Of a stretch of DNA of 23,132 nucleotides, positions 184-23,132 are shown one piece after another (position 1 is the first letter of the stretch; each line of letters opens with the position of its first letter). This DNA is from Sulfolobales archaeon (GTDB taxonomy: Archaea; Thermoproteota; Thermoprotei_A; Sulfolobales; NBVN01): contig JAWBTQ010000019.1 in NCBI GenBank assembly GCA_038841535.1, positions 1 through 23,132 on the forward strand, in the 5' to 3' direction. Below the pieces are notes generated by a model that was given only the letters and a program-made list of their open reading frames with translations, was not told the origin of the DNA and did no database searches. The position numbers and the translations under genes were made by a program.

Positions 184-1284
184 TTGAGCGCTGCTCTTGT
201 TGTAGTGAGAGAGCAGGATGTAGCTGAAGCTTTAGAGCTAGCTAGAGTGCTCTACAATAGAGTTGATGTAGTAAAGCTCCCAAATAGGTATAGGGTTTCT
301 ACATCAACTTACCTCACACCTAAGTGGCTGAGGTTAGTTCAAGACAAGTTAAAAGAAGGCCGTTTTGATAGAGTCTATGTCTACGACGTTCTTAGTCCTA
401 GACACGTAAGCTACCTTATTAAGGAACTGAAGGTCCTAGTTGAAGATAGAGTTATGCTGATACTCAGCGTTCTAGCTGAGCACGCGGGTTCTAAGGAAGC
501 TAAGATACAGATCGAGATGGCTAGACTTAGACACCAAATACCCCTACTTAGGGATTGGATAAACAGAGCTAAACTGGGTGAATTACCCGGCTTTCTAGGT
601 CCAGGTGGGTACGCTGTCGATGCTTACTACACGCACGTGAGAAAAAGAGTGAGTAAGCTGCGCAAAGAGCTTGAGAGACTCCGAAAAATCAAAGACTACG
701 AGAGAGGAAAGAGGGAGGAGAGAGGTTTAGTCCACGTCGCAATAGTGGGATACACGAATGCTGGAAAAACTACGCTGTTTAATGCTCTAACCGGTGAAAA
801 CAAGGCTACAGGTCCGGAGCTGCTAACAACGACTTCGACGAAGGCTAAAATGGTGCCTCTCGGCGAGCTTAAGGTGGTCTTCATAGACACGATAGGCTTC
901 ATAAAGGACATTCCACCTGAAATAGTTGAGGCGTTCTACGCTACTCTAAAGGAGATCTCAACGTCGTCTGCCGTTATACTTGTTATGGACATCTCCGATA
1001 GAGAGGAAGTCTTCAGTACCAAGCTTAAAGAATCGCTAAAGATACTAATAAACATAGGGTACGTCGGTAGACCACTCGTTGTAGCTCTAAACAAGCTAGA
1101 CCTCGTTGATACCCCTAGTGTAGTTAAACTAAGGTCCCTTATTGAGCCAGAATTAAACTGCAGTTTATGGTCTTACAAAGTAGTAGAAGTCTCAGCGCTA
1201 AAGGGAATAAACCTTGGAGGACTTAAAAACACCCTACTCGATGCCTTGAAGAGCTCGGAAACCATTACAGGGGTTCAGCTCTGA
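184..1284 (+). CDS. hflX: GTPase HflX
   Basis: HAGSKEAKIQIEMARL, GPGG, G1 GYTNAGKT, G3 DTIGFI, G4 NKLD, G5 VSA; TTG start directly after the mbf1 stop. Confidence 0.95.
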   Translation: MSAALVVVREQDVAEALELARVLYNRVDVVKLPNRYRVSTSTYLTPKWLRLVQDKLKEGRFDRVYVYDVLSPRHVSYLIKELKVLVEDRVMLILSVLAEHAGSKEAKIQIEMARLRHQIPLLRDWINRAKLGELPGFLGPGGYAVDAYYTHVRKRVSKLRKELERLRKIKDYERGKREERGLVHVAIVGYTNAGKTTLFNALTGENKATGPELLTTTSTKAKMVPLGELKVVFIDTIGFIKDIPPEIVEAFYATLKEISTSSAVILVMDISDREEVFSTKLKESLKILINIGYVGRPLVVALNKLDLVDTPSVVKLRSLIEPELNCSLWSYKVVEVSALKGINLGGLKNTLLDALKSSETITGVQL

Positions 1285-1304
1285 TGTAGGTTTATATCGG
1301 TTGT
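1274..1304 (-). repeat. Element end repeat, downstream of tnpB
   Basis: Minus strand ACAACCGATATAAACCTACATCAGAGCTGAA versus 2721-2751 ACAAGCGAAATAAACCTATATGAAAACCGAA. Confidence 0.7.
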
Positions 1305-1400
1305 CTTCACCGCCTCATCTCTTTCCCCCGCATTGGTCTTGGGTATGCATCACCCTTGGGGGTGTTCAGGGCGACCCCTAGCACCCCACATCTTGTGTAT
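1274..1400 (-). ncRNA. Putative TnpB omegaRNA/reRNA scaffold overlapping the tnpB 3' end
   Basis: Established location for TnpB guide scaffolds. GC-rich stem 1359-1364/1382-1387 (GGGGTG/CACCCC) with an inner AGGG/CCCT stem lies in the tail after the last RuvC Asp. Boundaries are inferred. Confidence 0.55.
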
Positions 1401-2518
1401 CTGTAGAACAGGTTGATACATGCAACCACGTCTCTATCTCCTGTGAATCCACATCTACTGCATCTCAGTACTCTACTACTGTTGTCCTTCAATCTGCTTC
1501 CACACCTGGGGCACGTGGATGACGTCTTTCCTGGGTTAACGTATCTAGCTACAAACCCTCTTTCTAAAGTCTCATAGCTTATGGTGAACTGTATTCTCCT
1601 ATAGAACCACAGGGATAGCTTCTTGTTGAGTGAGCTACCACCGTTGACTCTATCCCTCAGATGGTTCAAGTCTTCCAGCACTACAACAGCTCCATACCTA
1701 CTGGCTATCTCTGCTGCTCTATCGCCCAGCTTGTGAGCATAATCCCAAGCTATGCTCCTTATTCTCTCACCATGTCTTCTAATCGCTCTTCTAACACCCC
1801 CGATGAACCTCCAGGACCTCGAATACCTCTTCTGAATTCTCTCAATCCATATCCTGTGGGTTAGGATTCTCCTGAGAGGTGTTTTGAACTGCTTTAGCTT
1901 CAGCAACTCCCCACTTAGTGCGAAAACAGCTAGTGTAACGTTGTCGAAGTTAACGTCTATGGTCATAACGGTTCTGGTTCTCCTTGGTTCAACTGTTTTC
2001 CTGGAGTATACCGCTACGTAGACCTCGTTCTCAACAACCTTCACAGCTATCTCGTAGTTACTCCAACCCCTGAACTTCTCTACTCTTTCGTTAGATGTTA
2101 GTAGTCTCAGCTTAACCTCTCTACCATTGTGTATCTTTAGGATAAGCGTCCTATCCTTTAGATCAAGCTTGTAGTCGTACTTATCTACTCTAGCTGTTAA
2201 CCTCCTTAGAACTGGCTTCCTACCACCGTTCTGCCTACTAGCTCTAACAACTGCTTTAGCGTACACGTAGATCTGCTTTACGTGGTGTGCTCTAAAACCA
2301 CGATTTCTTAGCTCTGAGTAGAACATTCTGTGTAGAGCTTTAATTGAAGGTACCTCATTTAAACTCCACAACCTGTCTATCGCTAGCTGGACAGCATCAC
2401 GGTAGAGCTTCAGAAACTCAATTAATGCATCACGGTCATCGCTACCCTCGGGGAGAGCCCTCATCTTAAGAGCCTCAACAAGCTCTCCACCCCTCACCGA
2501 GTAACTCACCACATCCAA
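1307..2518 (-). CDS. tnpB: RNA-guided endonuclease TnpB
   Basis: RuvC-I TIDVNFD, RuvC-II VVLEDL, YVNPGKTSSTCPRCG...CSRCG zinc ribbon, RuvC-III DRDVVACINL. All three acidic catalytic residues are present. The true start may be a GTG 2-3 codons downstream. Confidence 0.95.
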   Translation of the reverse strand: MDVVSYSVRGGELVEALKMRALPEGSDDRDALIEFLKLYRDAVQLAIDRLWSLNEVPSIKALHRMFYSELRNRGFRAHHVKQIYVYAKAVVRASRQNGGRKPVLRRLTARVDKYDYKLDLKDRTLILKIHNGREVKLRLLTSNERVEKFRGWSNYEIAVKVVENEVYVAVYSRKTVEPRRTRTVMTIDVNFDNVTLAVFALSGELLKLKQFKTPLRRILTHRIWIERIQKRYSRSWRFIGGVRRAIRRHGERIRSIAWDYAHKLGDRAAEIASRYGAVVVLEDLNHLRDRVNGGSSLNKKLSLWFYRRIQFTISYETLERGFVARYVNPGKTSSTCPRCGSRLKDNSSRVLRCSRCGFTGDRDVVACINLFYRYTRCGVLGVALNTPKGDAYPRPMRGKEMRR

Positions 2519-2574: not shown

Positions 2575-2718
2575 ATGGCTAGAATCGAGCTGGTTAGATG
2601 CAGCGTTATAAAGTACAGAAGAGGGGATCACTTTCTCTACCCGTTGGGAAGAGACAAAGAGAAGATAAAACATCTCCACGGAAAAGAAGTATACGTACTA
2701 ATCGTAGCAGAAGAATAG
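2575..2718 (+). CDS. 47-aa basic protein inside the TnpB element, possibly AbrB/DUF2080-like DNA-binding
   Basis: MARIELVRCSVIKYRRGDHFLYPLGRDKEKIKHLHGKEVYVLIVAEE*. SD AGGTGG 6 nt before the ATG and a TATA box upstream. Below the ORF-track size cutoff. The fold is a guess from the GKEVYVLI tail. Confidence 0.7.
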   Translation: MARIELVRCSVIKYRRGDHFLYPLGRDKEKIKHLHGKEVYVLIVAEE

Positions 2719-3122: not shown

Positions 3123-3755
3123 GTGTTTGAGATCGGTATTTCTTGCAGGCTTAGAACAGGTGATATGGAGTATCTAGCTATGAAGACACACGAGCTACTT
3201 AGAGAGCTCGGAACGTCGGAGCTTGATACTGTTTACTTCTCTGAGGTGGTCGGGTCCGTCGGTAATGCCTCCGTCGCTCTCTATCTATCGAAGTCTAACA
3301 TAGGTGTTCTAGTAGTTGCTTCTGCTTGTGATGACGAGAGTAAGTGCCTTATTGGGCCAGTTAGAGAGATAGCTAATGTATCGAGGAGGATACTTAAGAG
3401 GTTAGGGGACCTCATAGAATTACTCAAAGTGGATTACGTAGTTAAAGCTAAGTTAACACTATCAACTGCCCACCGCAACATAGTGAAGTACTTAAAGATG
3501 GGTGGTGTAGAGGTGTCAGATGGAGGTAGTTACGATGCTGGCTGGTATAACGTTAAGATGTATAAGGGTAGGTACATTGTCTCTATGAAGAAGCTGGACG
3601 TAGTCATCACTCTAGTCCAGGAGAAGACCGGTGGCTTAGTTAGTGCCCAACTAACAGTCTCTAGATCACAGCAGGGAGCGTGCGAGCCCGCTGAGGAAGA
3701 ATTCGTCGACTGCCTTAAGGCTGTTTCTCAAATAATTGCTCACTTATCTAGCTAA
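3123..3755 (+). CDS. Hypothetical protein
   Basis: 210-aa ORF with a TATATAAA box at ~3083; no motif recognised. Confidence 0.75.
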   Translation: MFEIGISCRLRTGDMEYLAMKTHELLRELGTSELDTVYFSEVVGSVGNASVALYLSKSNIGVLVVASACDDESKCLIGPVREIANVSRRILKRLGDLIELLKVDYVVKAKLTLSTAHRNIVKYLKMGGVEVSDGGSYDAGWYNVKMYKGRYIVSMKKLDVVITLVQEKTGGLVSAQLTVSRSQQGACEPAEEEFVDCLKAVSQIIAHLSS

Positions 3756-22840: not shown

Positions 22841-23132
22841 CATGAAAACAGAGAGGTTAAGCTAAGACTACTGACATCTACTGAGAGAATAGAGAAGTTT
22901 AGGGGTTGGAGTAACTACGAGATAGCTGTGAAGGTAGTTGAAGACAAGGTCTACGTAGCAGTATACTTCAGGAGAGCGGTTAAACCGAGGAGAACTAGAA
23001 CAATCATGACTATCGACGTTAACTTCGACAACGTTACACTAGCTGTTTTCGCACTAAGTGGGGAGTTGCTGAAGCTAAAGCGGTTCAAGACACCACTCAG
23101 AAAGATACTAACCCACAGGATATGGATCGAGA
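22841..23132 (+). pseudogene. tnpB: 5'-truncated second tnpB copy running off the window
   Basis: Frame 2 reads HENREVKLRLLTSTERIEKFRGWSNYE...MTIDVNFDNVTLAVF...HRIWIE and aligns to residue 130 onward of the first TnpB (32 mismatches in 283 nt by hand count, ~89%). In-frame TAG at 22817-22819. Not in the ORF track. Confidence 0.88.

Follow-up and report, generated by a model that had tools for sequence, protein, structure and literature searches.

A conserved 47-residue protein encoded divergently from tnpB in TnpB-only insertion sequences of Thermoproteota

A small gene, divergent from tnpB, was found to be a conserved component of a TnpB-only insertion sequence in a Sulfolobales archaeon (GenBank assembly GCA_038841535.1, contig JAWBTQ010000019.1). 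It occupies positions 2575–2718, on the plus strand, of the stretch of DNA that was analysed (23,132 nucleotides, hereafter the window) and encodes a protein of 47 amino acids. The frame is maintained by selection in many related genomes, and the gene is inherited together with the nuclease gene that it accompanies. As to the role of the product, the reading that we prefer, at a probability of roughly 0.45, is that of a dimeric AbrB-like DNA binder that would control the dyad-symmetric promoter shared by the two genes.

TnpB-only (IS1341-type) elements are among the most abundant mobile elements of archaea and are ancestors of Cas12. Of particular interest are the regulation of these elements and the means by which they move when no transposase gene is linked to them. 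The clade of elements described here carries a strongly conserved second gene that is unrecognised by family libraries and, in genome annotations, is either called 'hypothetical' or missed; with it, a minimal RNA-guided transposon gains a conserved third component in genomes devoid of TnpA. Should the protein be a repressor, it would offer a straightforward means of controlling how much TnpB and guide RNA are made, useful for expressing thermostable TnpBs as editors; should it bind TnpB or the element ends, it would be a new component of the TnpB life cycle. The gene extends two known kinds, namely the small AbrB-like gene tied to tnpB and the small transposon-associated protein.

Coding status of the small frame

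The gene opens with an ATG at 2575 and closes with a TAG at 2716–2718. Its product (MARIELVRCSVIKYRRGDHFLYPLGRDKEKIKHLHGKEVYVLIVAEE) is basic, with a pI of 9.30 (median across the family, 9.4), and carries a hydrophobic C-terminal stretch, GKEVYVLIV, followed by AEE. On the same strand, a Shine-Dalgarno-like sequence, AGGTGGAT (2563–2570), places GGTG 9–11 nt ahead of the start codon; AGGTGG (2563–2568) stands exactly 6 nt 5' of the ATG, and TTTATAA is located at 2534–2540. The initial annotation, made from the sequence without database searches, had pointed to an ATG with AGGTGG at 6-nt spacing, an upstream TATA, and a basic product with a hydrophobic end, and each of these features is present as described. 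In 23 of 24 loci, a GGTG or GATG is found no more than 14 nt from the start codon of the small gene.

Frame, start, and stop are kept in all three copies in the source genome. When 201 genomes belonging to the same order were searched at the translated level, 67 gave matches at E ≤ 1, including 37 with a best E ≤ 1e-3 (counted from the table of matches). Thirty-three loci were retrieved, 32 of which gave a tblastn match. A start codon and an intact open reading frame (ORF) of at least 40 aa were found in 26 of these 32, among them one locus (L039) with a frameshifted C-terminal half; in the other six, the ORF is truncated, interrupted, or without a start codon.

Substitutions were assessed from Nei-Gojobori counts summed over 19 gap-free copies of 47 codons, which had been selected as intact, a choice that biases the openness of the frame and not the kind of substitution. 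In frame, pN/pS was 0.094 among 10 close copies and 0.119 among nine copies of a second subgroup, as against 1.34–3.80 in the other two sense frames of the same DNA. Variable sites numbered 11/4/35 at codon positions 1/2/3 in the 10 copies and 14/9/38 in the nine, and none of the remaining five frames was open in more than six of 21 copies. The 47-aa frame is under purifying selection and lies far beyond chance expectation. Because pN/pS is about 0.1 in frame, the GGTG motif is conserved, and the other frames are rarely open, the ORF is almost certainly a real, element-encoded protein.

A comparison of dN/dS among copies was one of the checks suggested in the initial annotation, and the contrast between about 0.1 in frame and the high values in the other sense frames is its result. 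The outcomes that the annotation had named as fatal to its proposal, namely a disrupted frame in sister copies, a lack of homologues, and identity as a decayed TnpA fragment, did not materialise: the source-genome copies are intact, 57 clusters of relatives exist at E ≤ 1e-3, and no Y1_Tnp match was obtained for 38 family members at E ≤ 10. It is scarcely credible that the frame arose by chance within the element's left end, or is a remnant of TnpA, and is conserved only as DNA. Such a reading could draw on the fact that the region doubles as cis-acting element DNA and on the six of 32 loci with a broken or truncated frame; it is opposed by the low pN/pS, with changes concentrated at third codon positions, by the conserved start codon and GGTG motif, and by the existence of the relative clusters. 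A fragment of the Y1 transposase TnpA (PF01797) was likewise rejected, on the absence of Y1_Tnp matches and on the purifying selection acting on the frame.

The host element and the pairing with tnpB

The adjoining tnpB gene lies at 1307–2518 on the minus strand and is listed at 403 aa; its relatives begin at the equivalent of GTG 2512. The initial annotation had called the small protein TnpB-associated, and the neighbour indeed matches Pfam PF07282 (Cas12f1-like_TNB, E 1.3e-15) and TIGR01766 (57.6 bits, cut-off 32), as well as NCBIfam NF040570 (guided_TnpB, E 3.7e-25) at 89 bits, below the cut-off of 100. In an alignment of 14 TnpB relatives, D188, E282, and D363, which we take to be the RuvC triad, are invariant, as are four Cys residues that presumably form the zinc finger. 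Judged from these positions, the TnpB nuclease looks intact.

Both genes belong to an insertion sequence at 1266–2766, assigned to the minus strand, with the left end (LE) at the 2766 side and the right end (RE) at the 1266 side as oriented by tnpB. The source genome assembly (40 contigs, 83.8% complete) was searched at the DNA level, yielding two more ORF-covering copies that are 88% and 86% identical over 1840/2100–2766. In a three-way alignment of the copies, homology runs through the ORF and ends at 2766, beyond which the flanking sequences are dissimilar. In four hot-spring runs, metagenome contigs match from 1266 and up to 2766 before continuing into differing flanks; depth in these contigs is several-fold higher inside the element than in the flanks and peaks at 1269–1402. 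An empty-site joint of 1266 to 2767 was not found among the metagenome contigs. From the extent of copy homology, the points at which the metagenome contigs diverge, and the end repeats, the element was delimited as 1266–2766. Within these limits are tnpB, the small gene, and repeats, with no other sizeable ORF. The small gene fills the left end, bounded by the tnpB promoter on one side and by the inverted repeat of the left terminus on the other. The two arms of the sub-terminal inverted repeat lie at 1274–1304 (RE, 31 nt, 77% complementary to the other arm) and 2721–2751 (LE), the latter starting 3 nt after the small gene's stop codon, and the LE block is conserved among copies as far as 2766.

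By definition, IS1341-type elements of the IS200/IS605 family carry a sub-terminal hairpin at each end and lack terminal inverted repeats. By its gene content, the element in the window is a TnpB-only insertion sequence of this type, 1.5 kb in length: it has a TnpB-family ORF and contains no transposase gene. Its left end is without excess hairpin (fold z 0.04 and 0.31), unlike classic IS200/IS605 ends; the right end gave a z of −1.98 on the tnpB strand. One-ORF elements from Staphylothermus marinus, accompanied by MITEs of ~260 nt that resemble the region upstream of the transposase gene, offer a parallel (PMC2678158). As in that system, TnpB is the sole large ORF, copies are diverged, and inverted-repeat-flanked MITEs (here ~270 nt) that share the region upstream of the transposase gene occur; the Staphylothermus elements, however, are described as one-ORF, and the part of that account drawn on here mentions no small second gene (PMC2678158).

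The 3' end of tnpB and the DNA downstream of it form an RE module of 134 nt (1269–1402, minus strand) that is repeated ~40 times in the genome. The DNA search of the source genome gave 45 matches, mostly covering this 134-nt part; the module copies are 74–91% identical. By analogy with other TnpB elements, the module is presumed to be the omega-RNA scaffold; an Rfam scan of the whole window matched no family. MITE-like elements of ~270 nt fuse the 1269–1402 module to the last 33 nt before 2770. Each copy of the RE module (e.g., L007–L020) would carry a different flanking 'guide'.

Several further features of the window and its surroundings were recorded. The element is inserted at the extreme 3' end of a gene for an HflX-type GTPase (184–1284; Pfam matches to MMR_HSR1, GTP-bdg_M, and GTP-bdg_N), and the last 19 nt of this ORF, including its stop codon, fall within the element. 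Just past the element's left end, a 210-aa ORF at 3123–3755 matched no Pfam family. A partial inverted copy of tnpB, 89% identical to 1840–2122, occupies 22850–23132 and runs to the contig end, where the assembly probably broke on this repeat. When the small protein was searched by tblastn against plasmid and phage collections, no match was obtained.

The small gene is divergent from tnpB at a distance of 56 nt, and this arrangement recurs widely. TnpB homology was detected directly upstream and on the opposite strand in 28 of the 32 loci, always divergent; 16 of the 28 align over at least 340 query residues, and several others are cut by contig ends or internally deleted. The pairing extends to remote pairs, in which the small protein is 34–39% and TnpB 34–43% identical to the proteins of the window, and four of five loci from other orders of the phylum show the same divergent arrangement. 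In five carrier genomes, the small gene stands beside 14 of 18 near-full TnpBs of the clade, as against none of nine TnpBs of a distant clade (open frames of ~440 aa); five of those nine adjoin a serine recombinase, marking them as IS607-like. Pairwise identities of the two proteins correlate across 11 loci (Mantel r 0.84, a value that none of 5000 permutations attained), and within the close subgroup the small protein is 89–91% conserved and TnpB 73–79%. The small gene is an integral, co-inherited part of the TnpB element.

The pairing is not without exceptions in either direction. Intact tnpB genes with a decayed or undetected small gene include L039, L044, and the other four of the 18 near-full clade TnpBs; given such loci, the small gene is dispensable for keeping tnpB open. 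Conversely, the small gene is intact next to a deleted tnpB at L030, L031, and L042. Together with G181:C4:121554-122035 and G172:C4:105695-106065, these loci constitute mini-elements in which tnpB is largely or partly deleted and the small gene intact, and which may be non-autonomous derivatives still making the small protein. Solo copies without detectable tnpB were also seen (L032, L033, G181:C14, and several in G032). A fourth, more distant match to the family profile in the source genome (G000:C4:20740-20898, E 1.8e-8) has no TnpB match nearby.

Family, predicted fold, and distant relatives

A protein search retrieved 19 close relatives of 44–75 aa, none with a Pfam domain. NCBI names 14 of the 19 'hypothetical protein', and the other five are unnamed; the 14 come from metagenome-assembled genomes labelled Desulfurococcaceae, Sulfolobales, Ignisphaera, Zestosphaera, and Nezhaarchaeales. 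When the profile was run against 1.84 billion cluster representatives, 23 of the 57 clusters scored E ≤ 1e-10. Across the phylum, 401 genomes were sampled; 27 contain a match to the family profile, and 13 of these 27 belong to other orders. The protein of the window had no Pfam match at E ≤ 1 and only a chance match in NCBIfam, and scans of the protein and 38 relatives against Pfam, NCBIfam, and PHROG produced no family that claims them. The ESM Atlas returned only unnamed clusters of the small-protein family itself. Full-text searches of the literature brought up no description of the family, although the supplementary tables of PMC10691335, a source considered here in part, may list the association. 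Among proteins of 183–2000 aa no fused form was found, which is weak evidence. A 300-aa representative (P0059), partially matched at three places by the N-terminal half of the family profile (E 5.7e-6), has the look of a translated repeat array and not of a fusion.

An AlphaFold2 monomer model built with 29 sequences (pLDDT 79, pTM 0.49) predicts a strand at residues 2–10, a low-confidence loop, a helix at 27–34, and a strand at 38–46. Foldseek returned no PDB entry at E ≤ 0.001, the best rows being unrelated Cas7-type chains with E ~4. Lower in the same ranking were designed double-zeta barrel dimers (8jvp, TM 0.48, E 8.3), which were set aside as engineered proteins; the corresponding study concerns engineered double-zeta barrels and, in the part considered here, bears on the small protein only through the general 'half-barrel' idea (PMC11258233). 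PDB profile searches yielded rows at chance level only, among them a staphylococcal exotoxin-like chain (E 0.95) and, at E ≥ 0.12, the proteins uL24 and FtsH. In view of these last two weak rows, the protein may have a different small beta fold.

The initial annotation had proposed a strand-strand-helix-strand pattern reminiscent of AbrB-like and DUF2080 transposon-associated proteins. Against an alignment of 31 AbrB/MazE domains from the same order, hhalign gave a probability of 43.6% and a P-value of 2.4e-4, with a score of 24.5 over 33 columns; none of 250 column shuffles reached this score, the highest being 17.1. The near-invariant Gly36 of the family aligns with the invariant Gly of the AbrB set. 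At the level of single sequences, Pfam MazE_antitoxin matched one of 38 members (E 0.022) and left the other 37 without a match even at E ≤ 10, TIGR01439 AbrB matched one of 38 (E 0.03), and no member of the 38 reached an AbrB/MazE/SpoVT cut-off (PF04014 or NCBIfam). Like AbrB/MazE/SpoVT proteins, the family is small and basic and proceeds from strand-turn-strand through a short helix and a Gly to a strand, all aligned in register. Unlike AbrB, the protein stops after the third strand, lacking the canonical fourth, and has an extra N-terminal strand instead. These comparisons lend weak support to an AbrB-like protein, and we infer a distant relative of the AbrB/MazE-type swapped-hairpin DNA binders; on our reading, the sequences would represent an unnamed family at the edge of AbrB/MazE-like small beta proteins.

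Membership in DUF2080 was rejected. PF09853, whose gathering score is 21.5 bits, matched neither the protein (E ≤ 1) nor any of 38 members (E ≤ 10); it was found in none of 101 genomes of the order, with a control genome matching, and in three of 401 genomes of the phylum. Profile alignment with DUF2080 gave a probability of 11.8%, a score of 21.7, and a P-value of 0.0025 over 37 columns with an 8-residue gap, although the DUF2080 alignment, assembled from the genes of those three genomes and their close relatives, is shallow (eight rows, three distinct); again, none of 250 column shuffles reached the score. The two families are alike in being archaeal, ~50 aa long, and located on mobile elements, and their N-terminal strand and C-terminal Gly-Lys-x-hydrophobic strand align. 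They differ in that the 8-residue helix segment of the small protein, corresponding to the alignment gap, is missing from DUF2080, and in that DUF2080 was seen in one context to be co-directional with and upstream of an IS66-family DDE transposase, whereas the small gene is divergent from tnpB. A distant kinship to DUF2080 is possible from these alignments. Of the likeness originally proposed, then, the imagined register survived profile-profile comparison, with both alignments above their shuffles and below family thresholds, and membership in DUF2080 did not.

The probably shared promoter and candidate roles

The 56-nt intergenic region (2519–2574) holds the divergent promoter and a candidate operator. 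Within it, and judged by the rules for archaeal promoters, the palindromic TATA box TTATAA (2535–2540) is probably common to both genes; it is its own reverse complement, and in 22 of 24 loci it begins 39–41 nt ahead of the start codon of the small gene. Archaeal promoters have ~26 nt between the TATA centre and the start site. From this spacing, tnpB would be leaderless from GTG 2512, whereas transcripts of the small gene would start near 2564, with ~11 nt of leader beginning at GGTGG, and one symmetric core promoter could serve both genes. The 14-nt arms flanking the TATA box show a mean dyad complementarity of 6.82/14, as against 3.81 ± 0.33 when shuffled (maximum of 4.86 in 2000 shuffles); some copies reach 11/14, and the window's own copy has only 2/14 dyad matches in an ungapped register. 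As operator evidence, this symmetry is suggestive only, the 24 loci being kin, so that the statistic overstates their independence. A symmetric BRE-TATA-BRE promoter would also give dyad symmetry without a repressor. The idea that the 5' leader pairs with the repeat of the left end was dropped, since the changes, judged by eye, are not consistently compensatory. The core of the terminal inverted repeat (1287–1297 and 2730–2740) contains a TATA-like GGTTTAT(A) that resembles the promoter TATA region at 2531–2540; at L037 and L038 the same 8-mer occurs in the promoter TATA region and the inverted repeat, and by eye no consistent pattern holds across copies.

Three functions had been suggested in the initial annotation, namely repression of the shared divergent promoter, modulation of TnpB, and binding of the end repeats, and among these the promoter dyad favours promoter repression. 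In the mechanism that we consider best, the small protein would dimerise, and the dimer would bind the dyad overlapping the shared TATA box and thereby repress both its own gene and tnpB. Repression of tnpB would also lower the amount of omega-RNA made from its 3' end, and nuclease dosage and element activity would thus be held at a level tolerated by the host. Fold, dimerisation, DNA binding, and repression are all inferred steps in this scheme.

Small genes of AbrB/MazE or RHH type have been described upstream of tnpB in Crenarchaeota and Euryarchaeota (PMC10691335). In these pairs, tnpB does not move and its catalytic site is rearranged; they were read as toxin-antitoxin modules, with the small protein proposed to block guide-target binding (PMC10691335). 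The present pairing is similar in that a small AbrB/MazE-like gene is linked to tnpB, but it differs in orientation, being divergent in all 28 loci, and in that the element is present in several copies, each in its own flanking DNA, has given rise to MITE-like derivatives, and keeps the usual acidic positions and zinc finger invariant. These published pairs lend some appeal to the idea that the small protein binds TnpB or its RNP, for instance as an antitoxin-like inhibitor or an assembly factor, as do the tight and ancient linkage to one TnpB clade and the co-divergence of the two proteins. We nonetheless regard this role as rather unlikely. Type II antitoxins are co-transcribed with an adjacent toxin, which they neutralise; the small gene is divergent from tnpB, which is at odds with the co-transcription usual for antitoxins and speaks against that class. 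MazE-type antitoxins grip their toxin with a tail, and the 47-aa protein has none beyond its predicted strand-helix-strand core. Moreover, small genes persist where tnpB is deleted and tnpB persists where the small gene is lacking, and the absence of fused forms points, weakly, in the same direction.

Were the protein instead an accessory that recognises the 31-nt sub-terminal inverted repeats and helps to pair or protect the ends for excision and integration by another enzyme, the imperfect repeats at both ends and the retention of both ends in the MITE-like derivatives would fit, as would the left end devoid of excess hairpin; with no Y1 transposase found in the carriers, a factor other than TnpA must handle the ends. 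This role is nevertheless improbable in our estimation. The MITE-like copies spread without encoding the protein, strong matches to which number only three in the genome, and this is compatible only with action in trans; promoter and ends share no consistent motif by eye; and a protein of 47 aa is too small to be the recombinase itself. We assign a still lower chance to the gene being a passenger with a host-directed or unrelated role, such as a small regulator or nucleoid protein of indirect benefit to the element. Solo copies without detectable tnpB would fit a passenger, and no function is known for the family, but the position, orientation, and spacing of the gene relative to tnpB have stayed fixed over the deep divergence of both proteins, with identities down to 33–39% for the small protein and 31–43% for TnpB. 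Control of the shared promoter by a dimeric AbrB-like protein stays our preferred reading.

The Y1 transposase domain (PF01797) was found neither in the source genome at its 83.8% completeness, with controls matching, nor in any of five other carriers, including three whose genomes are single contigs and 99% complete. A bolder combination of roles, to which we attach very little credence, would make the protein the missing end-recognition factor of TnpB-only elements in TnpA-less hyperthermophilic archaea: it would bind both the inverted repeats and the dyad promoter and, with TnpB or a host enzyme, mobilise the element and its ~40 MITE-like offspring. If true, this would constitute a minimal, two-protein, TnpA-independent transposition system.

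Serine recombinases are present in these genomes but adjoin the other TnpB clade. Mobilisation in trans by the IS607-like element of contig 18 was unsupported, as only chance end matches of 8–11 nt were found. That element (G000:C18:2245-3799, L098) comprises a serine recombinase gene and, behind it, a tnpB whose product shares 32% identity with the TnpB of the window, with no small gene of the present family adjacent, and the pairing of serine recombinase and TnpB also occurs in G181, G032, and G102.
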